Shown here: piece after piece, positions 25,731-62,460 of the stretch
Numbering within the stretch: position 1 is the stretch's first letter
Layout: every line of letters starts with the position of its first letter
Assembly (NCBI GenBank): GCA_028710985.1
Contig: JAQTTB010000001.1
Coordinates: forward strand, 523,014 to 587,013
Direction of reading: 5' to 3'
Origin: Patescibacteria group bacterium
GTDB taxonomy: Bacteria; Patescibacteriota; Patescibacteriia; JAHJFT01
Length of the DNA stretch: 64,000 bases
Translations under genes and position numbers: made by a program
Notes under the pieces: model-generated
Told to the model about the DNA's origin: nothing
What the model saw: the letters and a program-made list of their open reading frames with translations, nothing else
Databases searched by the model: none

Positions 25731-25731
25731 T

Positions 25732-26645: not shown

Positions 26646-26776
26646 AGACGACCGCGCATTGACAACCCGGCGCGATTTTGGTACAAATCAATATCCCGCC
26701 GGAATATTTCCGGCCGGAAAACCATGGGTAAGGCTGGCGTCGCAATGCGGCGTTGGTAGGCCCAAGGAGGAAAGAG

Positions 26777-27388
26777 ATGTCCGAAAAGAAAATGATGAGT
26801 CCGAGGCAACTTCGCGAGCTCATGGCCGTGGTCAGCCGGCACCTGTCTATTCATCTGCCGGCCAAGGTGGCGCAGAGCGTGATCGACAAGCCCGGCGATT
26901 TGGAGTTTGAGCTCTGCGAGCTCTTCTGGCGCATCGCCGAAGCGAACGAGAAGGCAAGAAGGGCGGTGGAAGCGAAGCACATCATCGACTGCGACGCCGA
27001 CCCCTATCTGCTCGGCCTCTTCACCGTGGAAGAGCACCGGAGAAGCGGTCAGTTGGAGTGGGACCCGGACAAGGTCGTTCTTTACCTTTCCGATTTGCAG
27101 AGGGGTCGTAGTGTTGTCCAGGGCCACGCGCTCCGCAAGGAACTCCAAAATCAGTCGGTTCTGAACGCCTGCGTCCTGGATTACCTGCTCGTTCATCCAA
27201 ACCTCATTCCCATCATGTGGATGAGGATGCGGGTCTACTTCTGGGGTACGATTTATTGCGATCGAGAAGGTGACCTCTGCGTTCGCGGCCTCTTCTGGGA
27301 AGACGAAAAAGGGTGGTTCTGGCGCTACAAGCATCTTTCGCACGATTTCTACCGCGACGACACCGCGGCGGTTTCTGCAAGCGTCTAG
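26777..27388 (+). CDS. hypothetical Trp-rich protein
   Basis: 203-aa ORF (MSEKKMMSPRQL...) with a strong GGAGGAAAGAG SD. Bracketed by REP palindromes and a CCCGTTTGCATTAAATTGCAACGGG plus T-run terminator. Confidence 0.45.
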   Translation: MSEKKMMSPRQLRELMAVVSRHLSIHLPAKVAQSVIDKPGDLEFELCELFWRIAEANEKARRAVEAKHIIDCDADPYLLGLFTVEEHRRSGQLEWDPDKVVLYLSDLQRGRSVVQGHALRKELQNQSVLNACVLDYLLVHPNLIPIMWMRMRVYFWGTIYCDREGDLCVRGLFWEDEKGWFWRYKHLSHDFYRDDTAAVSASV

Positions 27389-27621
27389 TAGCGGCGCATT
27401 GCAATACGCTGCTACGCGCCGACCCCCTGACCCGTTTGCATTAAATTGCAACGGGTCTTTTTTATTTAAATGCGAGTAGGGGCGGACCCCTGCGTCCGCC
27501 CTGTTCGTCGGGCGTCCGCCCCTACCATTTGTCGTCACCAACAAACGGCCGGTCGTCGATTTTCACCGCGTAGGGGCGAACGGCCGTTCGCCCCTACCGT
27601 TGATCCGTAATACGCCCCTAC
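27388..27621. repeat. cluster of four GTAGGGGCG-family palindromes plus a half-site
   Basis: Palindromes at 27388-27415 (GTAGCGGCGCATTGCAATACGCTGCTAC), 27476-27526 (GTAGGGGCGGAC...GTCCGCCCCTAC) and 27570-27597 (GTAGGGGCGAACGGCCGTTCGCCCCTAC), plus the half-site AATACGCCCCTAC at 27609-27621. Confidence 0.7.
27429..27467 (+). terminator. intrinsic terminator of the 26777 gene
   Basis: GACCCGTTTGCATTAAATTGCAACGGGTC followed by TTTTTTATTT. Confidence 0.6.
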
Positions 27622-27645
27622 CGGCGCAACCCCAATTCATTCCAT

Positions 27646-27673
27646 TTGATTTTAGGGGGAGGTATGATACAAT
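27646..27673 (+). promoter_or_regulatory. putative promoter of paralog A
   Basis: TTGATT, 16-nt spacer, TACAAT. Confidence 0.35.
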
Positions 27674-27701
27674 AATATCAATTTAAAATTAAATTAAAAT
27701 T

Positions 27702-28421
27702 ATGGACAAAATCAACCCATCCATGCCCGGCGAGGCAAAAAATATGTCCGCGGTCTGGATAATCGTCGCCATCGTAATCGTCGCCGTCGCGCTCGGCGGA
27801 TTAATGTATTATTTTCAAACCCTGTCGCAAGAAAAATTCGTTGCGCAGGAACAGGCGATTAATGATTTGCGCGAAGAACTTGGTCAGCCGACGGTCGTGG
27901 CTGAGGAAGGGGTGGAAGAGGAAGGTTCGGCCGAGGAAGAATATCTTACCTTTGAATCCGAACCAGTTTCTGTTTTACCCGAGATATTCTCGTTTGAATA
28001 TGCCAAAGGTTGGCATATTTATCATGAATATGATCATGGATGGGGCGAGGAAAAAGAAATTAGCAAAATATTAGTTTCGCCTGACCCGCTTCAGATTGCG
28101 CTTGACGCCGAATATTTACCTCAAGTTTATATTCTTGTCGATTTTGACTCCGTGGATACTCTTGATGAGTTCGTCGATCGGAAGTATGGAGATTCGGTGG
28201 AAACGAGTGAGGACGTAATAATTGCCAACTATCCCGGAAAAAAGATACACGTTGTAGATGACAAGATCAGCGGAGAAGATATTGAGGTTTATGCCTTCGT
28301 ATCCCCCAATGCCGCGTATTCTATTTATATTTATTATCCCGGCATAAAACAAGCAAGCATTGACCTCCCGGCAGAATATCAGCGCATCATTGATTCATTC
28401 AAGATTGAGTCAGGCAGTTAA
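27702..28421 (+). CDS. paralog A: N-terminally membrane-anchored secreted protein with acidic linker
   Basis: MDKINPSMPGEAKNMSAVWIIVAIVIVAVALGG signal-anchor. First ~55 aa are ~90% identical to paralog B and the C-terminal domain is unrelated. GGGGGAGG SD. Confidence 0.6.
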   Translation: MDKINPSMPGEAKNMSAVWIIVAIVIVAVALGGLMYYFQTLSQEKFVAQEQAINDLREELGQPTVVAEEGVEEEGSAEEEYLTFESEPVSVLPEIFSFEYAKGWHIYHEYDHGWGEEKEISKILVSPDPLQIALDAEYLPQVYILVDFDSVDTLDEFVDRKYGDSVETSEDVIIANYPGKKIHVVDDKISGEDIEVYAFVSPNAAYSIYIYYPGIKQASIDLPAEYQRIIDSFKIESGS

Positions 28422-28475
28422 TCGCACGATTCAAAAAAGGCCGCGCGTTTATTGCCGGCCTTTTTGAATATACGC

Positions 28476-28545
28476 GCAGGGGCGTATTGTCGCGTAGGGG
28501 CGAACGGCCGTTCGCCCCTACCGTTGATCCGCAATACGCCCCTAC
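28476..28545. repeat. second copy of the GTAGGGGCG palindrome block
   Basis: GCAGGGGCGTATTG half-site, GTAGGGGCGAACGGCCGTTCGCCCCTAC (28494-28521) and the AATACGCCCCTAC half-site. The ~95-nt block 28487-28581 is near-identical to 27563-27657. Confidence 0.7.
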
Positions 28546-28570
28546 CGGCGCAACCCCAATTCATTCCATT

Positions 28571-28600
28571 TGATTTTATCCGGGGGGGGGGTGGTATAAT
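28571..28600 (+). promoter_or_regulatory. promoter of paralog B with a G10 homopolymer in the spacer (candidate phase-variable promoter)
   Basis: TTGATT (28571-28576); the spacer contains G10 (28582-28591); extended -10 TGGTATAAT. Spacer is 18 nt with G10 and would be 17 nt with G9. Confidence 0.45.
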
Positions 28601-28630
28601 GCAATCAATAATTAAATCATTAAAATACAT

Positions 28631-29233
28631 ATGGACAAACTAAATGCATCCATGCCCGGCGTGGCAAAAAATATGTCCGCGGTCTGGATTATCGTCGCTA
28701 TCATCATCGTTGCCGCAATTCTCGGCGGAATGATGTATTATTTTCAAACCCTGTCGCAAGAAAAATTCGTTGCGCAGGAAGAGGCGATTGAGGCTCTACG
28801 CGCCGAGTTAAGCGAACCGGCCGCTTCAACTGCGGTAGAAGAAGAGGAGGCGGTTGCGGGAGATCAGGCCAAAGTCGAAGCAATTGATGAGCTTCAATAT
28901 GAAAACGATTATTATGGATTCAGCCTGTCATTCCCAGAGACATGGAGGGGCTATTCCGTTTATCATGAAGCCAATTCAATACATTTTGGTTTCGCGGCGG
29001 AGAAAGATCTCATGGCGATAGAAGTGATGGATTTGGAGGATTGGAAGATAATGAAAAAAGAATTGGATCTTCCGGGCCATGAAGCCGATGCGCTCTATAG
29101 CGCAGCCTACAGGGGCGAGAATGATAATTTCGCATTCTTTGGATGGGCGGCCCAAGACACGGTAAACGATGAGTTTATTCTTTCCAGAAGGATGGAAGTA
29201 GGGTCAATAATTAAAACGTTTAAAGCGAAATAG
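28631..29233 (+). CDS. paralog B: N-terminally membrane-anchored secreted protein
   Basis: MDKLNASMPGVAKNMSAVWIIVAIIIVAAILGG. Shared leader and N-terminus with paralog A; distinct C-terminal domain. Confidence 0.6.
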   Translation: MDKLNASMPGVAKNMSAVWIIVAIIIVAAILGGMMYYFQTLSQEKFVAQEEAIEALRAELSEPAASTAVEEEEAVAGDQAKVEAIDELQYENDYYGFSLSFPETWRGYSVYHEANSIHFGFAAEKDLMAIEVMDLEDWKIMKKELDLPGHEADALYSAAYRGENDNFAFFGWAAQDTVNDEFILSRRMEVGSIIKTFKAK

Positions 29234-33770: not shown

Positions 33771-34388
33771 ATGCAAAAAGCTGCTATAATTTTTTTGATA
33801 TTCGGCGCCCTCGCGCTTTCCGGCTGCGGCGAGCCGGTTGAGTATAATATTCCAGAAAATAATAACGACACAACTATGCAAAATGCGCAGACGTATTTTT
33901 TTCCCGGCCGGCTCGCGGACGAAGAGATTAAAAACAAAGTCGTGGTTATCGGAACCGCCAAGGGCGACATCGCGTTCGAGCTTTATGCCGACGAAGCGCC
34001 GCTTACGGTTTCCAACTTTATTTATCTCGCCAAGGCGGGGTTTTATAACGATCTGACATTTCATCGCGTTGAGCCCGGATTCGTGGTCCAGGGCGGCGAT
34101 CCGTCCGGCAACGGCACCGGCGGCCCGGGCTACACCGTGCCCGCGGAAATCGTGCCGACCCTGAAACACGTGAAGGGCGCGGTCGCCATGGCGCGGCTTC
34201 CTGACCAGGTTAATCCGGAGAAAGCCTCAAGCGGCAGCCAATTTTACATAACTCTCGATGAAACGTCATTTCTCGACGGCCAGTATACGATTTTCGGTAA
34301 GGTGATTGACGGCATGGCCGTTGTTGAAAAAATTCAAATTGGCGACAAAATAACTTCGATTAAAATCCAGGACAAAGAATCTAATTAA
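33771..34388 (+). CDS. cyclophilin-type peptidyl-prolyl isomerase, lipoprotein
   Basis: Lipobox LALSGC; cyclophilin core (FHRVEPGFVVQGGDP, SQFYITL). Confidence 0.9.
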   Translation: MQKAAIIFLIFGALALSGCGEPVEYNIPENNNDTTMQNAQTYFFPGRLADEEIKNKVVVIGTAKGDIAFELYADEAPLTVSNFIYLAKAGFYNDLTFHRVEPGFVVQGGDPSGNGTGGPGYTVPAEIVPTLKHVKGAVAMARLPDQVNPEKASSGSQFYITLDETSFLDGQYTIFGKVIDGMAVVEKIQIGDKITSIKIQDKESN

Positions 34389-34391: not shown

Positions 34392-34415
34392 TGCCCGACC
34401 TGCCTGCCGGCAGGC
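34392..34415. repeat. minimal CCTGCCTGC...GCAGGCAGG palindrome (same termini as the 49-bp element at 52138 and 59834)
   Basis: CCTGCCTGCCGGCAGGCAGG, perfect 20-nt inverted repeat between PPIase and the next gene. Confidence 0.5.
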
Positions 34416-34426
34416 AGGTTCACCGT

Positions 34427-35572: not shown

Positions 35573-35578
35573 AAAAAG

Positions 35579-35606
35579 TACGGGTAGCATATATGCGACC
35601 CGTACT
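35579..35606. terminator. bidirectional hairpin terminator (GCATATATGC-loop family)
   Basis: GTACGGGTAGCATATATGCGACCCGTAC flanked by A7 and T8. Confidence 0.6.
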
Positions 35607-35610
35607 TTTT

Positions 35611-37233
35611 TTAATATAATTCTTCTTTTTTCTCTTTGAAGAAATTCACAAAATCTTCAAGCGATTCAATGAGCGCCTTGAACGGCGCTTCAATTATAAC
35701 GTCAAAGATAAATATAAAGAAGTTGATTTTTACGGATTTGAGCGACAGCCATCGGCCGAGCCGGACAATCGGCAAAAAGAGCAGGTCAAAAATCAAAGTT
35801 ATGATATTGCCGCTCGAGCGAATGACGATAAGTTCGTGCGCACTTTGCCGGATTCTGACCCCGAAAAAGCTGATTAAGCTCAGGAACACAATGAATATCG
35901 CGCCGCTCGCGATATTGAATTCAAGTCGGCGCAACCCGTAAATGATAAGTCCAAGGACTCCGACAAAAACCACGGCGTAGATAATATTAAAAATGAAAGT
36001 TACAATCGGGCTGCGGCGCACCACGGTTTGCATGACGATTTTCCCCTGCTCTTCGGGGCTCTTAAAAATTATTTCGCGTAAACCGTCAACGATTTTTTCC
36101 GTGTTCTTTTTGGAAGGAACACGCACCGTCGCGCCGAGGAAGAACATGAGGAGCGGCGGGAAGAGTACGTTTATAGTAACCGGAATGTAGCGGAATTCAT
36201 GGGCGATATAAATATCAAACGGTACCTCGAGGAGAACCGCAAGCACCATTTTTGTGAGAAAAATATAGATCACACTGCGCACCATGCTGCGGCGCAGTTT
36301 GCTCCGGGATTCGTGATAACGGCTGTCGCAGGATTTCCGTATTTCTGAAAAAAACGCTTCTTCCGGACGGAAGGCTGTGCGCGCGAGTTCCGGCTTCTCG
36401 AGGAGTACATCCCGCAGAATGTCGAAAAACACCGTATGCTGCCGGAAGATGCGCAACATTTTTTCGCCGACCGGTTTAACGGCGATGGATTCAATCATTT
36501 TTATTATTTTTTCAAATTCGCGTGCGTAATTTTCTAAATTCTGCTCGCTTGGGGATGACCATTCGGGCCACATCTTTCTTATCATTTCGTAGCGGATGAT
36601 GCCCATGTCGGCTTTCCAGAGAGAACGGAGGTTTGCCACAAAAAGGAGGTAGTCTTTTTCCAGCTCACTCACGCGCAGATCCACGAAATGAACTTTATTG
36701 CTGACCGTCTGCAGCATGAACTGGAGAAGCGCGCGTTCGCGGTCCTTGGGCAGGAGAAGATCCTCAATTTCCGCGGCCGCGGCGCTCCAGAGCCAGTCGA
36801 TATTGCTCCGGTTGTAGGCGCGCGGGTCGGTTTCATTGATTTTTTCTAAAAGAAAAAAATACTTGGAGAGCACCTGCTCTATTTCAAGTATCTTTGTTTC
36901 CGGCACCGTATTATTTTTAAGATATCCGCCGCGGATAAGTTCGTAGGTCAGCGGCCGCGCGATTTCCTGGGATTCAACCCCCGGATAGATGCGGCGTTTG
37001 AGTATCCTCTGGATTGCATTTTTCCGGAGCAGATGGTCGTCCTTATAGTCAACAATGTTGCGGAATCTTTCGTAGACATAGGCAAGCGCGCCGATGATTA
37101 CGTTCACCTGAATCTTTGCGGCACTGGGAGCCGATTCGCCGGCGTGCATTGCCCGTACGTATGAGCTTAAAAATTTTTCCACCAGGGGATATAACTTTAT
37201 GGCCGAGGTGTTTTGCTGATTTGGAATCATCAT
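35611..37233 (-). CDS. hypothetical large protein with C-terminal multi-TM domain
   Basis: 540-aa ORF. N-terminal soluble half and C-terminal half with about five hydrophobic helices. Confidence 0.5.
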   Translation of the reverse strand: MMIPNQQNTSAIKLYPLVEKFLSSYVRAMHAGESAPSAAKIQVNVIIGALAYVYERFRNIVDYKDDHLLRKNAIQRILKRRIYPGVESQEIARPLTYELIRGGYLKNNTVPETKILEIEQVLSKYFFLLEKINETDPRAYNRSNIDWLWSAAAAEIEDLLLPKDRERALLQFMLQTVSNKVHFVDLRVSELEKDYLLFVANLRSLWKADMGIIRYEMIRKMWPEWSSPSEQNLENYAREFEKIIKMIESIAVKPVGEKMLRIFRQHTVFFDILRDVLLEKPELARTAFRPEEAFFSEIRKSCDSRYHESRSKLRRSMVRSVIYIFLTKMVLAVLLEVPFDIYIAHEFRYIPVTINVLFPPLLMFFLGATVRVPSKKNTEKIVDGLREIIFKSPEEQGKIVMQTVVRRSPIVTFIFNIIYAVVFVGVLGLIIYGLRRLEFNIASGAIFIVFLSLISFFGVRIRQSAHELIVIRSSGNIITLIFDLLFLPIVRLGRWLSLKSVKINFFIFIFDVIIEAPFKALIESLEDFVNFFKEKKEELY

Positions 37234-38380: not shown

Positions 38381-38460
38381 TTTTTTGTCGGCCGGGTGAT
38401 TGACATTTTTCCGCCGTTATGGTTAGGTTTAATCAGCACTTTGAGAAGGAGGGACGTTTC

Positions 38461-38946
38461 ATGGATCCGACAGAAAATCCGAAAAAGAATCCGGCAACCT
38501 GTCCGCACGCTTCGATGCATGAAATCACTTTCGGCAATATTTGCGACGATTGCGGTCTCGTCTTTCCGGGCGACGTGTTTCTCGACGAACTCCGTTGGGC
38601 CGTGGAAAATAATGCCACGCCGCCCTGCCCGGTTTGCGGCCAAGACCTTTCGCTGGTCGAGGATCAGGGAGGAGTCTTCGTCTGTGGCCACTGCAATAAT
38701 CGGACCGAATATCCCAAAGATATTGGCAAGATAATCCTCGCAATTAAAGACCCGTCTTTCAAAAGTCGCACATTCTACCCCCTCGTCGACCGCGTTCGCT
38801 TGCTCGCGAGGTGTCCCTATTGTGAGAAGGACAGGCTGGGACGCATCGCCGAGCTCGCGGTCAAGTGCTTGGATTGCGGACTGACGATCCGCCGTTGTCC
38901 AGACGGGGACGATCTAGTATTCGAGTTCTTCTTCTCCAGGAAATAA
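38461..38946 (+). CDS. Cys-rich multi-zinc-ribbon protein
   Basis: Five CxxC pairs (CDDCG, CPVCG, CGHCN, CPYCE, CLDCG). AAGGAGGG SD before the ATG at 38461. Confidence 0.5.
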   Translation: MDPTENPKKNPATCPHASMHEITFGNICDDCGLVFPGDVFLDELRWAVENNATPPCPVCGQDLSLVEDQGGVFVCGHCNNRTEYPKDIGKIILAIKDPSFKSRTFYPLVDRVRLLARCPYCEKDRLGRIAELAVKCLDCGLTIRRCPDGDDLVFEFFFSRK

Positions 38947-51126: not shown

Positions 51127-52225
51127 TATGGCTCGAATATCCATAAATATTGTCACCTGGAACGGCATGCGCTATCTTCCCGAGGCGCTTGAGTCGATTT
51201 CTAATCAGACATTCCAGGATATTGAAATAGTGATAATTGATAATGGTTCAACCGACGGCACGGTTGAATATATCCGCGATAATTTTACCGGAATTACGCT
51301 TCTACGGAATATGCGCAACCTCGGTTTCGCGCATGGCCACAATCAGGGAATCCGCTTGGTGCTGAACCGATGGCAGAATCAGGATTTGGAAAATAGTTTC
51401 ATTCTCGTTACTAATCAAGATATTATTTTGCGTAAGGATTTTTTGGAAAAAATGATTTCCGTCGCCGAGACGGCGCCGCGCGCGGCGAGTTTTGGCGGAA
51501 AGTTGTTTAAGGCGTTTTTTGCTACAGCTGAAGATAATATCGAAGACAGCATCAAGTCGGATACGCTCGATTCCACTGGCCTCCGGTGCTTTAGATCGCA
51601 CCGTTTCGTGGACAGGGGGGCTGGTGAGCGCGATCAGGGGCAGTATGATGCCGAGAGGGAGGTTTTCGGTGTATCCGGGGCGATTATGATGCTGCGCGCT
51701 TCGGCACTCGCGAGTGTGAGATATAAAGATGAGTTTTTTGATGAAAATTATTTTGCGTATAAAGAGGATGTCGATCTTGCCTGGCGTTTGCGCTTGGCGG
51801 GATGGGGGAGCCTGTATGTTCCCGAAGCGATCGCTCATCATTACCGCGGCGCCTACTCGGCCGAACGCGCCGGATGGATGGAGACCTGGCGCAGCCGTAA
51901 GAGCCGCTCGATGATTGTCAAATTAAATTCGTACGTCAATCATTACCTGACGATTATAAAAAACGCGCATATCCGCAATATCATCCTGCGCCTCCCGTGG
52001 ATTATTGCCTACGAGCTTAAAAAAAATATTTATTTATTTTTTCTTGAGCCTCGGGTTTTCTGGAAAGGGCTTTTTAAACTTTCCGTGAAGCTTCCGGACG
52101 CGCTCCGTAAGAGAAAATTCATCCTTTCCCGCGCCATGCCTACCGGCCCGCTTCGCCATAGCTTCAGCGAGGCGAGCAGGCAGGCCGCGGCGCGCCCGGC
52201 GGAGATAAGAAAATGGTTCAAGTAA
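51127..52225 (+). CDS. family-2 glycosyltransferase
   Basis: Start set at MARISINIVTWNG. GT-A DxD region. The C-terminal tail carries the 49-bp repeat element. Confidence 0.8.
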
Positions 52226-52229
52226 AAAT

Positions 52230-53021
52230 ATGGACGTCAGTATAATCATCCTAAATTACAAAAGTTCCGGTTTGGCGCGCCAGTGCATTAAAAGCATTGT
52301 TGCAGCTGCGCCGAAACTTGAGTATGAAATTATTGTCGTTGATAACAATTCTCACGACGGCATTGGGAGAATGCTTCGCGAGCAGTTCCCGCAAGTAAAA
52401 TTTATTCAGTCCAGCCGCAACGCCGGCTTTGCCGCGGGCAATAACATCGGCCTGCGCGTCGCCACCGGACGCTATGCCATGATCGTGAATCCGGACATTA
52501 TTGTGAATCCCGGAACCCTGGAGGAAATGGTAAAAGAAATGGATGCCCATCCCGAAATCGGCTTGCTCGCGCCGCAGCTCCTAAATCCCGACAAAACAAT
52601 TCAGTATTCATGCTATCGTCTTCCGACATTCGGCATACCGTTTTATCGCCGCACGCCGCTCGGTCTCACACCTCGCGGTAAGCGCATGATCCGCTCGTAT
52701 CTTATGGCCGAATGGGACCATGCCGCTCCGCGCGAGATTGATTGGTGCGTCGCCGCCTGCATCATGGTTCGGCGAAGCGCCGTTGAGTGCGTTGGTTATT
52801 TTGACGAAAGATATTTTATGTATTTTGAAGACGCCGACTGGTGCCGTCGGTTTCATCAAGCCGGATTCAGGGTAGTATATTTTCCACGTGCAAAAATGTT
52901 TCATTATCACATCCGTCAGTCCGCTGATGTGCCGTGGTTCATGGGATTATTTCAAAAAATAAGCCGCATCCATATGGCAAGCGCGTTAAAATATTTCTGG
53001 AAGTGGAAGGGCAAGGAATAA
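52230..53021 (+). CDS. family-2 glycosyltransferase
   Basis: MDVSIIILNYKSS...VVDNNSHDG GT-A N-terminus. Confidence 0.85.
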   Translation: MDVSIIILNYKSSGLARQCIKSIVAAAPKLEYEIIVVDNNSHDGIGRMLREQFPQVKFIQSSRNAGFAAGNNIGLRVATGRYAMIVNPDIIVNPGTLEEMVKEMDAHPEIGLLAPQLLNPDKTIQYSCYRLPTFGIPFYRRTPLGLTPRGKRMIRSYLMAEWDHAAPREIDWCVAACIMVRRSAVECVGYFDERYFMYFEDADWCRRFHQAGFRVVYFPRAKMFHYHIRQSADVPWFMGLFQKISRIHMASALKYFWKWKGKE

Positions 53022-53038
53022 ATATTTAAAATAAAAAA

Positions 53039-55078
53039 ATGTACGAGTATCCAACAAATTTTGTCGCGCAGGCTCCGAGTGAAGTTCGTAATGTCCGGGT
53101 CGGCCGGCCGAAGTGGCCGTATATCGGAGCGGTGCTTTTGATTATTATCGTTGTATTGGTAATCGCCGCCGTGCCCTACGCCCTGCTTGCCAACAATATT
53201 TACAACGAGGCTCTTGCCGGAAAGGCAAATTTAGAAGAAGCGCAGAATTACGCCGTGGCGCTTAAATTTGACGGCGCCCGCGAGCAGATCGACGACGCGG
53301 TTGGGCACTTTATATCGGCGCGCCGGAGCTTTATTCCGTTCAAAATTTTTATTTGGATGCCGTGGATCGGAAGGCAGATTAAAGCCGTGGACAGTCTTTT
53401 GGAAACCGGAGTTGAAACATCCGAAGCGGTCGGCGACCTTCTCGAGGTCGGTGAAGAAATTTATAAAGTTTTTGAATTGTCCGAAGAAATCAAGGCGGAC
53501 ATTAAGCCCGAAATATCCGGCGGCGTCCGGTTCATTGATCTTGACCGCGAAACAAAAAGAGAAATTTTGAAAAAATTATACGAGTCGGGTCCGCGCATCC
53601 AGGAAGCGCTCGTCCGCATCGACCTCGCCATATCGAGCTTCAGCCGTATTCCGCAGGACGATTTGGCCAAGCCGCTCCGCGACGCCATCGCGCCGTTTGC
53701 CGACAAGCTTCCGGAATTCAAGAAACAGCTGACGCTCGCCGTGCCGCTCGTAAAGATTCTGCCCGAACTCGCCGGTTATCCCGAACCGAAAAATTATCTT
53801 ATACTATTATCCAACAACGCCGAGCTCCGGCCGGCTGGCGGATTTCTTGGCACTTATGGAATATTTAAGGTCGCGGACGGTGAAATTCTGGACCTCTCGA
53901 CCCACGATGTGTACGCGCTTGACCGCCAGGCCGAATCTTTTTTGCGCGTGGATCCGCCGCCGCCGCTCGTGAAATATCTCAAGGTGAACAACTGGTATAT
54001 GCGCGACGCCAACTGGTCGCCGGATTTTGCTGCGTCGGCGCAGAAGGTTCTTTGGTTTTATTCCGAAGAGGCGCGCGGGGTTGCCACCCGCCGCGGTTCG
54101 CCGCTCCCCGAAGCGCCGCTTATAAATTTTAACGGCGTGATTTCCGTGAACCCGACCGTAGTTGCGGACATTCTTTCTATCATCGGCCCGATTACGATTG
54201 AAAATCAAACATTTAATTCTGAGAATTTTATTGATTCGCTCGAGTATCAGGTTGAAGTTGCTTTTCTTTCCGACGGCACCCCGCGCAGTCAGCGAAAAGA
54301 AATTATTAGCCTGCTTTCGGCGGAGATAATTGATAAATTATTTTCACTCCCGGCTGTGAAATGGATAGATGTTCTACGCGAGGCAGAACGTGGGCTGGAA
54401 GAGCGGGAAATTATTGTTTATGAAAACGACCCCGATATTCAGGAATCGCTTGAATTCCAAAATTGGGCCGGACGCGTCCGGTCGACTGACGGAGATTTCC
54501 TGAAAGTCGTTGACGCCAATCTCGCGAGTCTTAAAACCGATCCGTACGTTGAGCGTCAAATCAAATACGAATCTTGGTTTGAGGAGGACGGCGCTCTCAT
54601 GGCCCGGGTGAATATTCATTATAAAAACACAGCCGGCTTCAGCTGGAAGACGACGCGTTATCGCACTTATACCCGCGTCTACGCGCCCGAGGGAAGTGAG
54701 TTGGTTTCCGTTACCGGCAGTCTCAGGGATGATAAACTCGCCAATCCCGGTCTTGAGCCCGGCACGCCGGACGAATATAACGAGCTCGGCAAAACGGTTT
54801 TTGGCGCCTTCACCGCCATTGAGCCCGGAGCCCAGGGCGATCTTGTCTTCACCTACAAACTGCCCGAGTCGGTCAGCGCAATGATAAAGAACGGAGATTA
54901 TAATCTTTACGTTGAAAAACAGGCCGGAGCGGTGGCTTATGGCTTGACTTTGTCCCTGAATTTTGATAAAAACTTAAAGCAAGCCGAACCGGCAGAGCTT
55001 GAATCGCACTGGGGAGACCGGAGTTATAATCTTGAGACCGACCTTAGGGTCGATCGCACCGTCAATATAAAATTCTAA
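53039..55078 (+). CDS. DUF4012-domain membrane-anchored protein (polysaccharide-locus associated)
   Basis: TM anchor, then LLSNNAELRPAGGFLGTYGIFKV, the hallmark DUF4012 block (from memory). Confidence 0.65.
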   Translation: MYEYPTNFVAQAPSEVRNVRVGRPKWPYIGAVLLIIIVVLVIAAVPYALLANNIYNEALAGKANLEEAQNYAVALKFDGAREQIDDAVGHFISARRSFIPFKIFIWMPWIGRQIKAVDSLLETGVETSEAVGDLLEVGEEIYKVFELSEEIKADIKPEISGGVRFIDLDRETKREILKKLYESGPRIQEALVRIDLAISSFSRIPQDDLAKPLRDAIAPFADKLPEFKKQLTLAVPLVKILPELAGYPEPKNYLILLSNNAELRPAGGFLGTYGIFKVADGEILDLSTHDVYALDRQAESFLRVDPPPPLVKYLKVNNWYMRDANWSPDFAASAQKVLWFYSEEARGVATRRGSPLPEAPLINFNGVISVNPTVVADILSIIGPITIENQTFNSENFIDSLEYQVEVAFLSDGTPRSQRKEIISLLSAEIIDKLFSLPAVKWIDVLREAERGLEEREIIVYENDPDIQESLEFQNWAGRVRSTDGDFLKVVDANLASLKTDPYVERQIKYESWFEEDGALMARVNIHYKNTAGFSWKTTRYRTYTRVYAPEGSELVSVTGSLRDDKLANPGLEPGTPDEYNELGKTVFGAFTAIEPGAQGDLVFTYKLPESVSAMIKNGDYNLYVEKQAGAVAYGLTLSLNFDKNLKQAEPAELESHWGDRSYNLETDLRVDRTVNIKF

Positions 55079-55081
55079 ATT

Positions 55082-56086
55082 ATGTGGGTTAAAAAAATCG
55101 GCATTGATCTCGGAACAGCAACCGTGCTTGTCTACGTTCCAAAACGCGGCATCATTTTGAATGAGCCGTCGGTTGTTGCGATTTCCACGATTGATAAAAA
55201 AGTTCTGGCCGTGGGTCGCGAAGCGAAAGACATGCTCGGCCGCACGCCGGATTCAATCATTGCGCGCCGTCCCTTGAAAGACGGCGTAATTGCCGATTAT
55301 CGCACTACCGAAGCGATGCTTAAATATTTCATTAACAAGGCGCTGGGTGGCATGCGTCTTTTTCGTCCCGAGGTTATGGTCGCGGTTCCGGGCGGCATTA
55401 CCTCAACCGAGCGCCGCGCCGTGATTGACGCGGCCATCGCCGCCGGCGCCAAAGCGGCCTACATCATCAAAGAACCGATTGTCGCGGCCATCGGCGCCGA
55501 TATTCCGATTGGCAGCGCGTCCGGCCACATGGTTGTTGACATCGGCGGCGGCACCGCCGAGATTGCCGTAATCTCTTTGGGCGGAATCGTGGCTTCTGAA
55601 TCGGTGCGCATCGGCGGCACGAAGTTCGATCTCGCCATCATGGAGCACGTACGCCGCAAATACGGTCTCGCCATCGGCGAGCGCACGGCCGAAGAAGTAA
55701 AAATCAATATTGGCTCGGCCATGTATATGGAAAATAAATTGACCATGGAAGTAAAAGGCCGCGACATGATGACCGGATTGCCGCGCATCATCACCATCAC
55801 TTCGGACGATATTACCGATGCGATTCAAAATGAACTTGACGGTATCATTGACGCCATCAAAGACGTTTTGCAAAAAACCCCGCCCGAACTTTCGGCCGAT
55901 GTCATGGACAAGGGCATGATTTTGACCGGCGGTTCAGCCCTGCTTCGCAATCTTGGCCAACTTTTCCGCGAAGCAACCGGCGTGTCCGCCTACGTAGCGG
56001 ATGAGCCCCAGCTCTGCGTGGCAAAGGGCACCGGCATCGCGCTTGAAAATCTTGAATCCTACAAGCGTTCTATTTTTTCCGGATAA
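55082..56086 (+). CDS. mreB: rod-shape-determining actin homologue MreB
   Basis: IGIDLGTATVLVY phosphate-1 and DIGGGTAEIAV phosphate-2 motifs. Confidence 0.95.
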   Translation: MWVKKIGIDLGTATVLVYVPKRGIILNEPSVVAISTIDKKVLAVGREAKDMLGRTPDSIIARRPLKDGVIADYRTTEAMLKYFINKALGGMRLFRPEVMVAVPGGITSTERRAVIDAAIAAGAKAAYIIKEPIVAAIGADIPIGSASGHMVVDIGGGTAEIAVISLGGIVASESVRIGGTKFDLAIMEHVRRKYGLAIGERTAEEVKINIGSAMYMENKLTMEVKGRDMMTGLPRIITITSDDITDAIQNELDGIIDAIKDVLQKTPPELSADVMDKGMILTGGSALLRNLGQLFREATGVSAYVADEPQLCVAKGTGIALENLESYKRSIFSG

Positions 56087-56095
56087 AAATTTATT

Positions 56096-57223
56096 ATGAT
56101 CATTGGGATTGAGGCGGCTCGTCCGAACCGGCCGCAAAAAACCGGCACCGAATGGTACGGTTACCACGTGATTCAGGAAATTAAAAAAATCGCCGATCCT
56201 TCGGATCGGTTTATTTTATATACAAATGATCCTCTCCGTTCCGGCCTTGAGATAATGCCCAATGCGAACTGGCGCGAGAAGCGGCTCGGCTGGCCGATTC
56301 CGAAGTTTTGGACCCAGGGCCGCCTGTCGCTCGAGATGCTCGTAAATTCGCCGGATGCGGTTTTTATACCCGCGCATGCCATGCCAATTATTCATGTCAA
56401 GAATACGGTGGTCACTCTGCATGACGTTGGTTTTGAAAGATTTCCCGAGCTTTATTCCCGCGCCGATCTCTGGTACCACCGTTGGTCCGCGAAATTCATC
56501 ATCCGCCATGCCGCGAAAATTATCACGGTTTCAAATTTTTCAAAAAACGAACTCGTTGAGCTTTATGGCGCTCCGGCGGAAAAAATCTTTGTTACGCATC
56601 TGGGCTACGATGCCGAACGCTATCGGGTTATTGAGCCGGCCGAGGTGGAAAAAGTTTTACTGAAGCATAGAATCAAAACGCCGTATATTTTTTATATCGG
56701 CCGCCTGGAGCGCAAAAAAAATATTCCGCTGCTTATTGAAGCCTTCGGACGCTTTAAGCAAAAGAATCAAAACGACTCGCACTCGCTCGTTCTGGTCGGT
56801 CGGCCGGGATTTGATTATGAAAAAATTCAGGAAAATATAAAAAAATTCAATCTTGAACAATGGGTAATCCAAACCGGCTGGGTGGGGGAGGATAGTATCC
56901 CGTATTTTTACAACGGCGCGGCGGCGTTTGTTTTTCCGAGCCGTTACGAAGGCTTCGGCATCCCGCTCATTGAAGCAATGGCCTGCGGCACGCCGATTCT
57001 CGCGTCGCGCGCCGGGTCCATTCCCGAAGTTGCGGCCGATGCGGCGTTGTATTTTGAAACCGAGAGTGCGGATTCGCTCATCGCGGGCATGGAAAATATT
57101 CTGAACAATCAGGAGTTGCGCGGCTGTCTCCGCGCCGCCGGCTTGGCCCGCTGCCAAAATTTTTCCTGGGCTCGTACCGCCCGTCAGACTTTGGAAATTT
57201 TGAAATCAAATTCTAGATTCTAG
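56096..57223 (+). CDS. GT4 (GT-B) glycosyltransferase
   Basis: FVFPSRYEGFGIPLIEAMACGTPI EX7E region. Confidence 0.85.
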   Translation: MIIGIEAARPNRPQKTGTEWYGYHVIQEIKKIADPSDRFILYTNDPLRSGLEIMPNANWREKRLGWPIPKFWTQGRLSLEMLVNSPDAVFIPAHAMPIIHVKNTVVTLHDVGFERFPELYSRADLWYHRWSAKFIIRHAAKIITVSNFSKNELVELYGAPAEKIFVTHLGYDAERYRVIEPAEVEKVLLKHRIKTPYIFYIGRLERKKNIPLLIEAFGRFKQKNQNDSHSLVLVGRPGFDYEKIQENIKKFNLEQWVIQTGWVGEDSIPYFYNGAAAFVFPSRYEGFGIPLIEAMACGTPILASRAGSIPEVAADAALYFETESADSLIAGMENILNNQELRGCLRAAGLARCQNFSWARTARQTLEILKSNSRF

Positions 57224-57270
57224 CTTCTAGATTCTAGATTCTCCGCCGCCTCCCCGCAAGGGGATTTTTT
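57222..57270 (+). terminator. TTCTAGA tandem repeats then hairpin terminator
   Basis: TTCTAGATTCTAGCTTCTAGATTCTAGATTCTC overlapping the GT4 stop, then CCCCGCAAGGGG plus T6. Confidence 0.5.
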
Positions 57271-57297
57271 GTGTTATAATGTTGACATAATTTCAAT

Positions 57298-58065
57298 ATG
57301 ATTGAACAGGAGTTGCAAAAATTTGGCTTAAGCCAAAAAGAAATTAAGGTCTACCTTTCTTCGCTCCAGAGCGGTCCGCGCTCGGCGCAGGAGATTTCGC
57401 GCGTTGCCGGCGTCAACCGTGTCACGTGCTATGTCATCCTTGAATCCCTAAAGGGATACGGCTTGGTTACCCAGGTGGACGGGGAACGGGGCCGGCTTTT
57501 TGCCGCGGAAAATCCGGCGAATATCATAAGATTTTTGGAATCCCGCGAAAGAGAAATCCAGGATGTGAAGGCCAGGGTGCACCGCGCTATGCCTGAACTC
57601 ATGGCGATATTCAACGGCTTAGGCGATAAGCCGCTCATCCGTTTCCTTGACGGCATTGAAGGCATTGAGGTTATCCAGCGGGAGGTTTTTGAAAAAGATG
57701 TCAAAAACATTGACAGCATCGCCTGCCTGGATGCGGCGTTTGAACATATTGATCCCTACGAGTTCACCGAATATCGTGAGAACATGATCGCCAAGAAAAT
57801 TACCGGACGGACAATCTACACTTCAAAAAAATATACAACCGAATATCTGCCCGACGGATATGAAAAATGCCAGGAATTGCGCCGCCTGCCGTTTGAAAAA
57901 TTTAATTTTCCCGCCGAAATCTGGATTGCGGATAATTTCGCCGCCATTTTCAGCTTTCAGGGCAAGCCGGCGGTTATCGCGATTGAGCATCCTGCCATTA
58001 TTGCCGCAATGAAAACCTGGTTTGAGCTCGCGTGGGAAGCGGCCGCGCACCACGCCCAGCAATAA
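57298..58065 (+). CDS. TrmB-family transcriptional regulator
   Basis: N-terminal wHTH (LSQKEIKVYLSSLQSGPRSAQEISRVAGVNRVTCYVIL) plus TrmB-like C-domain. Confidence 0.65.
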   Translation: MIEQELQKFGLSQKEIKVYLSSLQSGPRSAQEISRVAGVNRVTCYVILESLKGYGLVTQVDGERGRLFAAENPANIIRFLESREREIQDVKARVHRAMPELMAIFNGLGDKPLIRFLDGIEGIEVIQREVFEKDVKNIDSIACLDAAFEHIDPYEFTEYRENMIAKKITGRTIYTSKKYTTEYLPDGYEKCQELRRLPFEKFNFPAEIWIADNFAAIFSFQGKPAVIAIEHPAIIAAMKTWFELAWEAAAHHAQQ

Positions 58066-58087
58066 ATTAAAGAAAACATTTTTAAAT

Positions 58088-60067
58088 ATGGCGTTTAAAA
58101 ATCTTTTTGAGCCGATAATGATCGGCTCGCTCAAATTAAAAAATCGTTTGGTCCTGCCACCCATGGTGCGAAACTGGGCAACCGAACGCGGCGAGGTGAC
58201 CGACCGATTGGTGGATCATTATGCCGCCCTCGCTCGCGGCGGTACGGCCATGCTGATTCTTGAGGCGATCTATGTTTCGCCCGAGGGTCGCGGCTTTACT
58301 TATCAGATGGGCATCGATAATGATGCCTTGGTTCCGGGACTAAAAAAATTAGTTGATGCCGCGCATCAATATGGCGCGGCAATCGGGCCGCAGCTATATC
58401 ATGCCGGCCGCCAGACAAACTCAAAAACTATCAGCCAGCCGCCGGTCGCGCCTTCGCCCATCCCGTGCCCGGTTCAGCGGGAAATGCCGCGCGAACTCTC
58501 GGCCGAGGAAATTTCCGAAATTGAAAACGCCTTCGCCGCGGCCGCCCTGCGCGCCAAGGGAGCGGGATTTGATTTTGTTGAAGTGCACGGTGCGCACGGT
58601 TATCTCATTACGCAATTTTTATCCGCGTATTCAAACAAAAGAAAAGACGCGTACGGCGGCGATCTTGAAGGCCGCATGGCATTTTTAAAAAATATCATTA
58701 AAAAAATTAGAGCTGCGGTTGGCCCGGATTATCCCGTGACCGTGCGGCTTTCGGGTGAGGAGCGCGTTCCCGGCGGTCTCACCATTGACGACACGAAAAA
58801 AATCGTCAAAGAGCTGGAAAAACTCGGCATTGACGCGGTGCACATTTCCGTCGGCAATTACGGAAGCTTTGCCGAGGGACTCATGATTCCGACCATGGCC
58901 GCGCCGACCGGAGCGCTGGTATATCTCGCCGAACAGGTGAAGAAATCAACCAGGCTGCCGGTAATCGCGGTCGGAAAAATCAACACCCCCGAACTCGCTG
59001 AAGAAATTATTGCGAACGGCCAGGCCGATATGGTTGCCCTCGGCCGGGAGCTTATGGCCGATCCGGAATGGCCGAACAAGGTGCGCGATGGCCGCGCCGA
59101 TGAGATTCAGCGGTGCATTGCCTGCAACCAGGGATGCATTGACCGGCTGTTTGCCGGGCTTGATACTCAGTGCGTGGTCAATCCGCTTTTCGGGCGCGAA
59201 CGCGAATTCGCGGTTACCCCGGCGGCTGATTTAAAAAAAATCATGGTGATCGGCGGCGGTCCGGCGGGCATGCAGGCCGCGATTGTCGCCAAGAAACGCG
59301 GACATGGAGTTGCGATTTATGAACAAGGAAGCGAACTTGGCGGCGCTTTGCTTTTTGCGCAGAAACCGCCGCATCGCGAGGGCATCGCCTGGCTGGTTAA
59401 GGATTTTATCGCTCAAATACACGAACTCGGCATTGAGGAAAATTTCAATACCGAAGTGACGCCCGAACTTGTCGCCGAGGTCAAACCCGACGCGATTATT
59501 ATCGCCACCGGCTCGGAGTGTGCCCTTCCTCCGATTCCGGGAGTAAATCTGCCGAACGTGATGTCGCCGCGCGATGTTCTTTCCGGCCAGGTCAGAGTTG
59601 GAAATAGTGTTATCGTCGCTGGCGGCGGCTGTGTCGGCGCCGAGGTAGCCGAATATTTGGTCGAGCGCGGACATAAAGTGAAAATTGTGGAAATGAGAGA
59701 GGCGATTGTCAGCGATCTTGGATTTGCGGACGGCGTTCAGCTGCGCGCCCGTTTGGAAAAACTTGGCGTTGAAATTTTTACAAAAACAAAAATTCTTGAA
59801 ATAAAAAAAGACGGTATTGTGATTGAGCGCGAAGGCCTGCCTGCTCGCCTCGCTGAAGCTGTGGCGAAGCGGGCCGGTAGGCAGGGCAAACGCGATGAAA
59901 TCGGTGGCGAGAGTCTGGTGCTTTGCCTCGGCTCAAAATCGGTTAATGATCTCGAAAAATTGCTCGTCGGAGCCGCGTCCGAAATCGTGGTTGTCGGCGA
60001 CGCCGTGGAACCGCGGCGTATTCTTGAAGCGGTCTACGAAGGCTATGCCGCCGGATTAAATATTTAA
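58088..60067 (+). CDS. NADH:flavin oxidoreductase of the Old-Yellow-Enzyme / 2,4-dienoyl-CoA-reductase type with C-terminal FAD/NAD(P)-binding domain
   Basis: Start set at MAFKNLFEPIMIGSLKLKNRLVLPPM. OYE TIM barrel (HGAHGYLITQFLS), Cys cluster CIACNQGC, then GGGPAGMQAA Rossmann motif. Confidence 0.85.
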   Translation: MAFKNLFEPIMIGSLKLKNRLVLPPMVRNWATERGEVTDRLVDHYAALARGGTAMLILEAIYVSPEGRGFTYQMGIDNDALVPGLKKLVDAAHQYGAAIGPQLYHAGRQTNSKTISQPPVAPSPIPCPVQREMPRELSAEEISEIENAFAAAALRAKGAGFDFVEVHGAHGYLITQFLSAYSNKRKDAYGGDLEGRMAFLKNIIKKIRAAVGPDYPVTVRLSGEERVPGGLTIDDTKKIVKELEKLGIDAVHISVGNYGSFAEGLMIPTMAAPTGALVYLAEQVKKSTRLPVIAVGKINTPELAEEIIANGQADMVALGRELMADPEWPNKVRDGRADEIQRCIACNQGCIDRLFAGLDTQCVVNPLFGREREFAVTPAADLKKIMVIGGGPAGMQAAIVAKKRGHGVAIYEQGSELGGALLFAQKPPHREGIAWLVKDFIAQIHELGIEENFNTEVTPELVAEVKPDAIIIATGSECALPPIPGVNLPNVMSPRDVLSGQVRVGNSVIVAGGGCVGAEVAEYLVERGHKVKIVEMREAIVSDLGFADGVQLRARLEKLGVEIFTKTKILEIKKDGIVIEREGLPARLAEAVAKRAGRQGKRDEIGGESLVLCLGSKSVNDLEKLLVGAASEIVVVGDAVEPRRILEAVYEGYAAGLNI

Positions 60068-60071: not shown

Positions 60072-60836
60072 ATGAAACTTGAAAAAACATTGAACAAGCT
60101 CGGACTCTCGGACAAGGAAGCGCGCGTCTACCTCGCCGCGCTTGAACTCGGGCCCGAGGCCGTGCAGGAGATTGCCAAAAAATCCGGCGTCAACCGCGCC
60201 ACCACTTACGTGATGATTGAGTCGCTCATCCGGCGCGGGCTCATGAGCTCATACGAGCAGGGGAAAAAACGGCTTTTCGCGCCAGAAGAACCCAACCGGC
60301 TTTTTAACTCTCTGAAATCCGCGGAGCAGGAAATTGAAGAAAGACAAAGCGCGCTTAAGTCAATCATGCCCGATCTTCTCGCCATTTGCGCTGGCGCCGA
60401 AAACAAGCCGCGCATCAGATTATTTGAGGGCTACGAAGGCATCATCTCCATAAAACAAGATATTCAGGAATCGGGAACTGATTATATGGATAACATACTT
60501 GATATGGATGAATTCAAAAGAATATTTTCTGGCCATGAGTTTGATGAGCAGAATAAAAAATTTTTTAAAAGTAAATTAAACTATCGCTGCATTTTAACCT
60601 CCGGTCCGCTGGAACAAGAAATATTAGAAAAGTTTAAAGTGTTTTCTGGCATCAGATTCTTGGAAAGAGGAAAATTTTTTTTCCCGGGAGAGATCGGGAT
60701 GTACGCAAACAAGTCCGCGTTCCTAACTTATCGCGGCACCATGATCGGCGTAATAATTGAAAGTGCGGAAATCAATCAAATGCTTCGGGCCATGTTCAGC
60801 ATGCTTTGGGAGATGAATATTGGCGAAAAATTATAA
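60072..60836 (+). CDS. TrmB-family transcriptional regulator (paralogue of 57298)
   Basis: LSDKEARVYLAALELGPEAVQEIAKKSGVNRATTYVMI wHTH. Confidence 0.65.
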   Translation: MKLEKTLNKLGLSDKEARVYLAALELGPEAVQEIAKKSGVNRATTYVMIESLIRRGLMSSYEQGKKRLFAPEEPNRLFNSLKSAEQEIEERQSALKSIMPDLLAICAGAENKPRIRLFEGYEGIISIKQDIQESGTDYMDNILDMDEFKRIFSGHEFDEQNKKFFKSKLNYRCILTSGPLEQEILEKFKVFSGIRFLERGKFFFPGEIGMYANKSAFLTYRGTMIGVIIESAEINQMLRAMFSMLWEMNIGEKL

Positions 60837-60965
60837 AAAAAGACACCGACCGAGTACCGGTGGTGCCGTGCATATCCCCCAATTTATTGAGATTCCTCCC
60901 GAATTTTTCTTCTGAACTTTATGTTAAGGCTTGAAAGCTTGCCGTTTACGTTATATGCGGCATCG

Positions 60966-61343
60966 TTAGCCACCCCAGCCGCAATTGCAGTGCCGGACCG
61001 CGGACTTGCGCCAGCGGCGCATGTATGGCGTCTTCCAGCCCTTGAGGACCGGATCGTCCGCCGCCTGAAACGCGCTCTCCATGAGCGCGATTTTGTTTAC
61101 TTCGGTCGCAGAGGCACCGCGTGCCCTGCCCGGCATGTTGTTTGCATTCTCCCTTGGGAGAGCGGCAAACTCCGGACAAAGCAGTACGTCATCGCACTTA
61201 CTCGCCAGCCGCTCTCCCTCGGATCCGTGTGGAACCCTGGAAAGTGACTTTGCTTCTCGGAAAAACTCGCTGATTGGCTGCTTCAGTACGCTTGCCATCA
61301 TTCTGTTTTCCGTGAGCACGAGTTTGCGCGATAGACTTGGCAT
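60966..61343 (-). CDS. hypothetical protein
   Basis: 125-aa ORF with AGGAGG SD 6 nt before the ATG. Competes with plus-strand ORF 60921..61247, which has no SD. Confidence 0.35.
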   Translation of the reverse strand: MPSLSRKLVLTENRMMASVLKQPISEFFREAKSLSRVPHGSEGERLASKCDDVLLCPEFAALPRENANNMPGRARGASATEVNKIALMESAFQAADDPVLKGWKTPYMRRWRKSAVRHCNCGWGG

Positions 61344-61389
61344 GATATTCCTCCTTGAGCACGGTTTAGAATTAACTGGCCTGCATTGA

Positions 61390-62460
61390 TGATTTGGACC
61401 TTATAATTGGTTTTGTTCTTGGCCGCGAATCGCCAATATCCGGTTTACCCCACAAGGGGAACCGGCCACTATATCACAAGATTTCACGCTTGTCAATGGA
61501 GGGGGGGATGTGTTAAAAAAGCGGACATCTTGTCCGCATTTTTTGTTCGTAAATCGGTAAATTGATTTGAATTTTAGATAATTCTGTCAGCAACTCTTGA
61601 CAAATTCCGCAGAGCGTACTAATGTTCAAGGTTCGTTGCGAAAATAATATTTTCAGGGTTGTGTAAATAAGTTTGAAGTAAAAATATTACGGGAGGGGAT
61701 TGAGGGCCAATCTCGCAAATCCTACTTATCTACACCATTGTGAAAATTTTGTCAAGCGATTGACAGATTAATCACGCGTAGAGGAGAAAGATAAGAATGC
61801 CTTGGTATATCTCGTAGTGCCGGGGCGTTTTTGTATTGTAGTAGATGATTGTGGACTTGTATAAAACGAAAACAGACCCAGAAGGGATCTGTCAGGAAAT
61901 TAAGCACTTGAAATGATTTATTGGTTCATTTCAGACCAGGACAGCTTTCCGCCTCACCACTTGTCTTCCCACGGCATGGAAAGACACCAGGTGACTGATG
62001 GGGGCTTGATCGTGTCTAGATCGTGTTTTGTGGCTCCTTAGGCCACGCCTTTTACCTGAATCCGCTCATGTCCTCTTGTCCTCCTTGGCTGATCGAAGTC
62101 CGAGAGCATCGTAGCACTAGCACAACATGCCCATATAATATCACATTTTGGCACTTTTGTCAAGAGACTGCCAGCCCGCAGCAAAGCTGCGGGCAATTTT
62201 AAGTTGTAAATTTTAAATTTTAATTCAAGCCCCAATTTCTAAATTTTTAATAACAAAATGTCGCGTCGCTGCTTGTTTGAAGAATTTTGAATTTATAATT
62301 TAAAATTGAATTATAATTTAAAATTAAAAAAGTCCTCATTTTGCATTACGCGCAAAAGAGGACCGGCACCCAATTCTTATATTAACAAACAATTTATTAG
62401 CATAAGGATTGTGAGCGCTTTTTGACAGAATGTCGAGGCGCGCTCGAGAATACCTCGGAA
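61390..62460. other. AT-rich ~1.1-kb gene-poor region with internal bidirectional terminator and short AT tandem repeats
   Basis: No ORF longer than 65 aa. Terminator AAAAAAGCGGACATCTTGTCCGCATTTTTTG at 61516-61546. Tandem AATTATAATTTAAAATT repeats at 62286-62330. Lower GC than the flanks. Confidence 0.4.

Follow-up and report, generated by a model that had tools for sequence, protein, structure and literature searches.

A very small, GC-rich hairpin repeat, probably a selfish DNA element, inserted in frame in two unrelated genes of a Patescibacteria genome

Two inverted copies inside unrelated genes

The window, by which we mean the whole 64-kb stretch of DNA that was analyzed, is part of a 744,538-nt contig from a Patescibacteria metagenome-assembled genome (MAG). 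Within it, a 49-bp sequence occurs in inverted orientation in two unrelated open reading frames (ORFs), at 52138–52186 on the plus strand and at 59834–59882 on the minus strand, with 48 of the 49 nt alike. The features concerned are the following.

34399–34418, no strand assigned: perfect 20-nt palindrome CCTGCCTGCCGGCAGGCAGG, the minimal form, between a cyclophilin gene (33771–34388) and a DUF4015 gene
51128–52225, plus strand: host gene 1, a GT2 family glycosyltransferase of 365 aa (orthologues ≈348 aa)
52130–52194, no strand assigned: target context of copy A, in which the flanks CGCGCC and GCGGCGCG make a perfect 14-nt palindrome once the insert is removed, with the insert near its center
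52136–52186, plus strand: copy A, a 51-nt in-frame insertion (ATGCCTACC...GCAGGCAGGCC) in the GT2 C-terminal tail, encoding MPTGPLRHSFSEASRQA
58088–60067, plus strand: host gene 2, an Old Yellow Enzyme (OYE)/FAD-dependent oxidoreductase of the 2,4-dienoyl-CoA reductase type, 659 aa (orthologues ≈641–643 aa)
59834–59884, minus strand: copy B, a 51-nt in-frame insertion (plus-strand sequence GGCCTGCCTGC...GGTAGGCAG) that encodes GLPARLAEAVAKRAGRQ within the NAD(P)-binding part of the OYE/FAD oxidoreductase

The coordinates, the single mismatch, and the encoded peptides all agree exactly with the initial annotation of this DNA. A search of the 64-kb window allowing up to three mismatches returned only these two copies, and the same search returned none in 100 dinucleotide-preserving shuffles. 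The copies lie 7,633 nt apart, and in a repeat search the inverted similarity reaches 61 nt at 92% identity (52133–52193 versus 59827–59887). The string CCTGCCTGC occurs four times in the window against an expectation of 0.28, and all four occurrences fall within copy A, copy B, and the 20-nt palindrome at 34399–34418.

Each 51-nt insert consists of a 48-nt core, CTGCCT...AGGCA(G/T), plus a 3-nt repeat, which, read in the orientation of the element, is GGC on both sides at both sites. This repeat may reflect a 3-bp duplication, microhomology, or coincidence. Because GCC stands on both sides of copy A, its placement is ambiguous by 3 nt; the 50-nt family unit corresponds to 52135–52184 there and to 59836–59885 in copy B, which has GGC on either side. 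With a covariance model built from the family alignment described below (model R1), copy A scores 71.4 bits on the minus strand and copy B 76.2 bits on the plus strand. Scanning the whole window with this model yields intact copies only and no decayed ones, three in 64 kb, of which two are genic. The element is markedly richer in GC (0.68–0.72) than the window (≈0.50).

We compared each host protein with its 39 closest orthologues, which for the oxidoreductase are 47 to 62% identical to it. The initial annotation had proposed checking both proteins for an insertion of about 16 residues, and the alignments reveal exactly 17 extra residues in each, GLPARLAEAVAKRAGRQ in the oxidoreductase and MPTGPLRHSFSEASRQA in the GT2 protein, absent from 39 of 39 orthologues in both cases; the peptide segment is therefore not one that orthologues share. 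In the two nearest relatives, both genes lie on one contig without the insert (P0004/P0125 on a 17,510-nt contig and P0003/P0132 on a 25,194-nt contig), and these are therefore true orthologues. The insert-bearing oxidoreductase is found on contigs of at least two independent run assemblies (SRR22315506 and SRR22315509; four carrier contigs in all), so the repeat is not an assembly artifact. A search of the metagenome contigs for an empty-site oxidoreductase allele of the same species gave 0 matches.

An AlphaFold2 model of the oxidoreductase (mean pLDDT 93.8) has values above 90 in the rest of the protein and places the insert in a short low-confidence helix (pLDDT 52–59) between the strands at residues 576–581 and 602–606. 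As modeled, the insert is a protrusion at a surface β-hairpin turn of an otherwise confident fold. In the GT2 protein, the insert lies 12 residues from the C terminus, within a poorly conserved tail.

A repeat family with conserved arms and a 20-nt minimal form

We searched a set of one genome per species, 596 Gb in total, with the two-anchor pattern TGCCTACCGGCC-N18–36-AGCAGGCAGG, which specifies 22 bases. The scan returned 43 loci, whereas by our own arithmetic from 22 bases and 596 Gb about one would be expected by chance. From their sequences, we judged 41 of the 43 to be homologous; the other two (L012 and L026) look like chance matches. Conservation extends beyond the positions fixed by the pattern: the CC preceding the left arm is present in 32 of 35 aligned sequences, and the four columns GGCG before the right arm are conserved in 94 to 100% of the 35.

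The carriers include many CPR lineages, Omnitrophota, Ignavibacteria, Bacteroidota, Planctomycetia (Planctomycetota), Nitrospirales and Thermodesulfovibrionia (Nitrospirota), Bdellovibrionales (Bdellovibrionota), and a Pseudomonadales bin. Because a complete chromosome and a 2-Mb contig are among the loci, mis-binning cannot explain this spread over phyla. CP181398.1 is an example of a complete genome with members of the family. The 14-nt arms are conserved in bacteria of more than ten phyla, whereas the interior varies by lineage, in classes that differ mainly by indels around conserved blocks. Unit size follows lineage as well, at 48 nt in CPR bacteria, 42 to 44 nt in Omnitrophota, Ignavibacteria, Nitrospirota, and Bdellovibrionota, and 49 to 55 nt in Bacteroidota.

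A second scan, of metagenome contigs with a less constrained pattern for the CPR-type interior, added 13 loci. One of these (L097, GC 0.38) differs by one mismatch from each of the window copies. Identity between genomes thus equals identity within the genome, and the two window copies need not derive from one another. Scores with model R1 across 56 loci are bimodal, with intact copies at 51 bits or more and all others at 32 or less; together with the lack of decayed copies in the window, this fits a young or actively homogenized family. At some loci, the element is a module of longer composite repeats that also hold other hairpins (L016/L024/L038 and L031/L040).

Comparison with existing collections gave no family to which the element could be assigned. 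At gathering score, Rfam has no match in the window or in nine loci, and a permissive Rfam scan of the element gave only subthreshold miRNA-type hairpins, the best at 29 bits against a threshold of 90.5. Kinship to 5S rRNA helix I or to the 16S 341F region, which we also considered, is unsupported by the Rfam scan. Full-text literature searches for three sequence strings of the element returned nothing relevant, neither PLSDB plasmids nor GenBank phages gave a blastn match to the element, and the long-form pattern had 0 matches in viral contigs. Neither the window nor the loci contain a regularly spaced array of the CRISPR type.

The perfect 20-nt palindrome at 34399–34418 is the minimal form of the family. 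In the alignment to model R1, it occupies the outer stem and the 30-nt interior is treated as a deletion (22.6 bits), and it is more stable than shuffled sequences (z = −3.3). At 8 of 43 loci from other genomes (7 of the 41 judged homologous), a short palindrome and a long copy lie no more than 8 kb apart, and at one locus (L043) with a ≈94-nt tandem duplication, one unit carries the short form where its partner carries the long form, with identical flanks. The outer-stem alignment, the co-occurrence with long copies, and this substitution bear out the relationship between the palindrome and the 49-bp repeat that had initially been proposed from their ends. In viral contigs, the short form is present in 57 copies on 48 stretches with GC contents of 0.33 to 0.70, several contigs being multicopy.

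One phage tRNA-Met (L075, 2239–2330) has the palindrome as its long variable arm and is nevertheless called by ARAGORN. We also observed family members that break a D-arm-like sequence (L086 at 515 and L100 at 908–957). These, together with members at L046 (8616) and L061 (339), interrupt tRNA-like sequences, not called by ARAGORN, at sites resembling the D arm or the variable loop.

Location, folding, and neighborhood of the copies

Among ≈54 distinct copies, most lie between genes (≈88% intergenic outside the window). Members of the family are occasionally found within tRNA genes or beside them. Six are genic and in frame, with cores that are all 42 or 48 nt long, and no convincing case of a disrupted frame and no split gene is present in this set. 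Outside the window, in-frame copies occur in a MiaA homolog (L002, confirmed against solved MiaA structures), a QueC homolog (L034), a glycosyltransferase-like ORF (L008, assigned by reading its sequence), and a 363-aa ORF (L103). The genic copies are found in both orientations and in at least three reading frames. If insertions were random and purifying selection then acted on them, in-frame copies such as these six would be the ones to remain. We also considered excision at the RNA level, as by a "mini-intron," and rejected it in view of the preserved frames, the cores in multiples of three, and the absence of split genes.

The arms are two imperfect 14-nt inverted repeats, CCTGCCTRCCGGCC ... 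GGCGAGCAGGCAGG, which enclose a short inner hairpin; CCTGCCTACCGGCC matches the reverse complement of GGCGAGCAGGCAGG at 11 of 14 positions, with the outer 7 bp perfect. The imperfect hairpin of the initial annotation exists as a fold, but the fold of the window copies as single-stranded DNA is not significantly more stable than that of dinucleotide shuffles (z = −0.9 to −1.55). As RNA, the inner hairpin is only weakly, and not significantly, more stable than shuffles (median z −0.9). We discarded covariation of the inner hairpin as an argument, the signal being weak at this median z and the classes differing mainly by indels. The reverse strand folds better as RNA in 35 of 35 aligned members; we dropped this as evidence because the search pattern fixed some of the positions responsible. 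An argument from strand-specific G·U wobble pairs was withdrawn as well, since the first search pattern had fixed those positions; the less constrained metagenome sample is mostly Watson–Crick there (position 8 mostly G).

There is no fixed-length target-site duplication, most copies having a flanking repeat of 0 to 3 nt. Exact adjacent flanking repeats of 7, 8, 8, and 14 nt occur at four loci (L067, L042, L047, and L053, respectively), a length of 7 nt being reached by 0.6% of controls, and near-adjacent repeats of 10 and 13 nt occur at two others (L074 and L002). The flanks of copy A, which would form an uninterrupted palindrome without the insert, pair with each other in the predicted fold. 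Flank stems of at least 5 bp are mildly enriched around long copies (5 of 54, versus 2.4% in controls). A general rule of insertion into hairpin loops was rejected, the short form being not significant and the long form only mildly enriched.

All-against-all clustering of the 1,744 ORFs at 104 loci revealed no recurrent gene or transposase beside the copies; the clusters consisted only of phage structural genes, from related phage contigs, and one DNA methyltransferase. A Pfam search of ten unassigned ORFs in the window likewise found no transposase. One small ORF (38419–38946) gave a Zn_ribbon_IS1595 match of 19.6 bits against a cutoff of 25.4 and is probably just a zinc ribbon. In a Bacteroidales MAG, a long element stands at the 3′ end of an ORF (L040, ≈954–1437) within a repeat of more than 120 nt common to two contigs (L040 and L031). 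The C terminus of this ORF carries the motif RVEHxFG, from which we take it to resemble an IS5-type transposase. Judging from these sequences, the element may hitchhike on an insertion sequence there.

Apart from this family, the window contains a second, unrelated set of palindromes of the form GTAG(G/A)GG..-loop-..CC(C/T)CTAC, for example GTAGGGGCGTATTGCAATACGCCCCTAC, which have the classic layout of GTAG-tagged REPs. Several are followed by T-runs. They lie at the following positions.

11127–11164: GTAG palindrome
25701–25738: GTAG palindrome
26617–26653: GTAG palindrome
27388–27424: GTAG palindrome
27570–27606: GTAG palindrome
28494–28530: GTAG palindrome
35577–35614: GTAG palindrome

The region 27567–28802 is a tandem duplication of ≈924 to 929 nt that includes two 88-nt stretches, 99% identical and each with a GTAG palindrome, which precede paralogous membrane-anchored proteins (27702–28421 and 28631–29233) with nearly identical N termini. 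Paralogous TrmB-family regulators (57298–58065 and 60072–60836) stand on either side of the oxidoreductase gene and share short stretches of 72% identity at the DNA level. A region of ≈1.5 kb (≈60900–62450) holds only short overlapping ORFs and no tRNA, with subthreshold matches to enterobacterial sRNAs as its best Rfam hits; the entire 64-kb window is without tRNA genes and without Rfam families at gathering score.

Other GC-rich hairpin repeats, resembling "cattgcgag...gaagcaatc" and "gggaatgac," occur beside the CCTGCC element or nested with it in unrelated genomes. They are seen at the MiaA ORF (L002, "...SLAMTG..."), in the right flanks of L020 and L028 ("gacgaagcaatct"), and at 8290–8310 and 9880–9900 of L103 ("cgcgggaatgac" and "gagaatgac"). 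From their sequences, these arrangements suggest several cross-phylum hairpin families that form mosaics.

Comparison with known elements and interpretation

That palindromic selfish DNA can be carried in frame within genes is textbook knowledge in the case of Rickettsia, and the same has been observed with some REPs; each of these families is limited to one narrow lineage. Mitochondria also have very small GC-rich palindromes, the mobile GC clusters of yeast and the double-hairpin elements of Allomyces, which multiply in their genome and can occur within genes for proteins and RNAs. By description, our element resembles these mitochondrial elements, which differ in being organellar and lineage-specific.

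The stem-loop repeats known as REPs, including intragenic ones, comprise GTAG- and CGTC-tagged families (Di Nocera et al. 2013, PMC3733652), for which insertion into small target palindromes and families without a transposase have both been documented (PMC3733652). Broadly like REPs, the element is a short, GC-rich, imperfect palindrome that is mostly intergenic and occasionally lies inside ORFs and is translated; it is sometimes nested in "target palindromes" or in mosaics with other hairpins, and, like the CGTC REPs, it has no known transposase (PMC3733652). It differs from them, or appears to, in several respects. The GTAG or CGTC end tag of REPs is absent, the ends being CCTGCC/GGCAGG, and GTAG is found internally only where position 8 is the A/T variant, which is not the case in most metagenome copies. 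REPs usually measure 20 to 40 nt, whereas here the short form is a perfect 20 nt and the long form 42 to 55 nt with a nested hairpin. REPs reach high copy numbers, whereas three copies in 64 kb is a low local density, and REP families are restricted to a species or genus (PMC3733652), whereas the arms of this element are identical across many phyla. The RAYT (HUH-Y1) gene that REPs flank has no recurring counterpart in the 104 loci or among the ten window ORFs.

Rickettsia palindromic elements (RPEs; Ogata et al. 2000, as reviewed in PMC10969869) share with our element the nature of palindromic selfish DNA carried in frame in unrelated housekeeping genes, compatible with the protein fold and without a known transposase (PMC10969869). 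We set them apart by description, since RPEs are ≈100 to 150 bp long and restricted to Rickettsia (PMC10969869), whereas the present insert has 51 nt and a Patescibacteria host, and its family extends over many phyla, with the short form also present on phage contigs. In having terminal inverted repeats (14 nt, 11 of 14 complementary) and in being non-autonomous and dispersed, the element also recalls MITEs (PMC10969869), of which in-frame intragenic examples are known. However, it lacks a fixed-length target-site duplication, it is as small as the smallest MITEs or smaller (PMC10969869), and no parent insertion sequence with the same ends was seen in the window or the loci. Because the element has no REP tag, no MITE duplication, and no integron core, we file it as a selfish hairpin of the REP/RPE type in its behavior, belonging to no named family.

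We consider it probable (≈0.7) that the 49-bp repeat represents two copies of a very small (48–51 bp), GC-rich, hairpin-forming, non-autonomous selfish DNA element. Its copies would land more or less anywhere, and selection would keep only the harmless ones, namely those that are intergenic or that, being a multiple of 3 nt and free of stops, fall in a tolerant loop; the genic copies that persist would therefore be translated as neutral decorations of 14 to 17 residues. To the initial annotation, the repeat looked like a mobile or recombinogenic element. Presence in these genes against absence in orthologues, along with dispersed, near-identical copies, argues for mobility, whereas "recombinogenic" found no support.

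The element might move as a folded single strand, conceivably handled in trans by an enzyme encoded elsewhere, by analogy with the logic of REP/RAYT or IS200 systems. Movement would then leave no fixed target duplication, and there could be some preference for the centers of existing palindromes, which would also explain the nesting of the short form within the long.

Two other origins of a conserved hairpin deserve weight, and we regard both as unlikely. The repeat might be a functional cis-acting RNA or DNA hairpin, such as a terminator, an mRNA stabilizer, or a protein-binding site, that is kept by host selection and is not selfish. The intergenic position of most copies, the T-runs that follow some of them (L022 and L023), the strong conservation of the arms across phyla, and the thought that REPs act as RNA elements (PMC3733652) are all consistent with such a role. 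It fits poorly, however, with coding-region copies in both orientations and at least three reading frames, with copies in tRNA genes, and with the unrelated nature of the two genes that host the window copies; moreover, no Rfam family matches at gathering score, and the palindrome at 34399 has no T-run. Improbable to much the same degree is a templated filler, that is, a conserved small ssDNA or RNA product, retron-like or associated with repair, captured through microhomology at breaks or forks with no dedicated transposase. Flanking repeats that vary in length (3 nt at the window copies and 7–14 nt elsewhere), the lack of a linked transposase in the loci and the ten window ORFs, and near-identical copies in unrelated genomes would suit this origin, but flanking repeats are entirely missing from most copies, no gene emerged as a candidate template, and the lineage-specific interiors are explained at least equally well by genomic copies that were inherited and modified.

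The inverted arrangement of the two copies, 7,633 nt apart, would also be expected if they bounded a 7.6-kb segment (52187–59833) that inverts or recombines, with rearrangement as their purpose. We hold this to be very improbable, since inversion would exchange the C termini of both genes for antisense sequence, independent run assemblies agree on the arrangement across the oxidoreductase copy, no recombinase gene was recognized nearby, and family members elsewhere are singletons. Slighter still is the chance of an integron attC-like site or another site-specific recombination site; the layout is superficially similar in that the outer stem is conserved, there is an internal mismatch, the inner stem is short, and the terminal structure varies, but the arms have no RYYYAAC/GTTRRRY core sites, and the copies are singletons inside genes with neither cassette arrays nor a neighboring integrase. 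That the repeat is an assembly artifact, or that the shared peptide is ancestral or convergent, has nothing in its favor beyond the source being a MAG, and its probability is negligible: the reading frames are intact, the same protein comes from separate run assemblies, dozens of assemblies produced by different laboratories contain homologous copies, the complete chromosome and the 2-Mb contig among them, and the segment is missing from all orthologues. The orthologues, the cross-genome copies, and the independent assemblies already refute it.

The selfish-element reading can be taken further, to a version that we find possible but doubtful. Here, the element would be a pan-bacterial, horizontally spreading "nested hairpin" whose 20-nt core colonizes phage genomes and the DNA between genes, as well as loops in proteins and tRNAs, and also serves as a landing pad for lineage-specific inner hairpins. 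It would be moved by neither a DDE nor a RAYT enzyme, via folded single strands or palindrome centers, and would be one of several cross-phylum hairpin families, the others including the "cattgcgag...gaagcaatc" and "gggaatgac" types that accompany it in L002, L020, L028, and L103.

In-frame palindromic selfish DNA as a phenomenon is already known. What appears to be new here is the family itself, its small size and nested short-in-long architecture, and, most notable, the identity of its arms across phyla and phage genomes. The arms are the same base for base in different phyla, and the 20-nt core recurs in phage genomes, across GC contents from 0.33 to 0.70, which suggests that the element is often transferred horizontally or that an as yet undescribed mobilizing machinery is widely shared. 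The inserts add 14 to 17 residues to real enzymes, and the element seeds spurious ORFs, with peptides of the LPTGRQ/LPAGRQ type, in the annotations of metagenome-assembled genomes.
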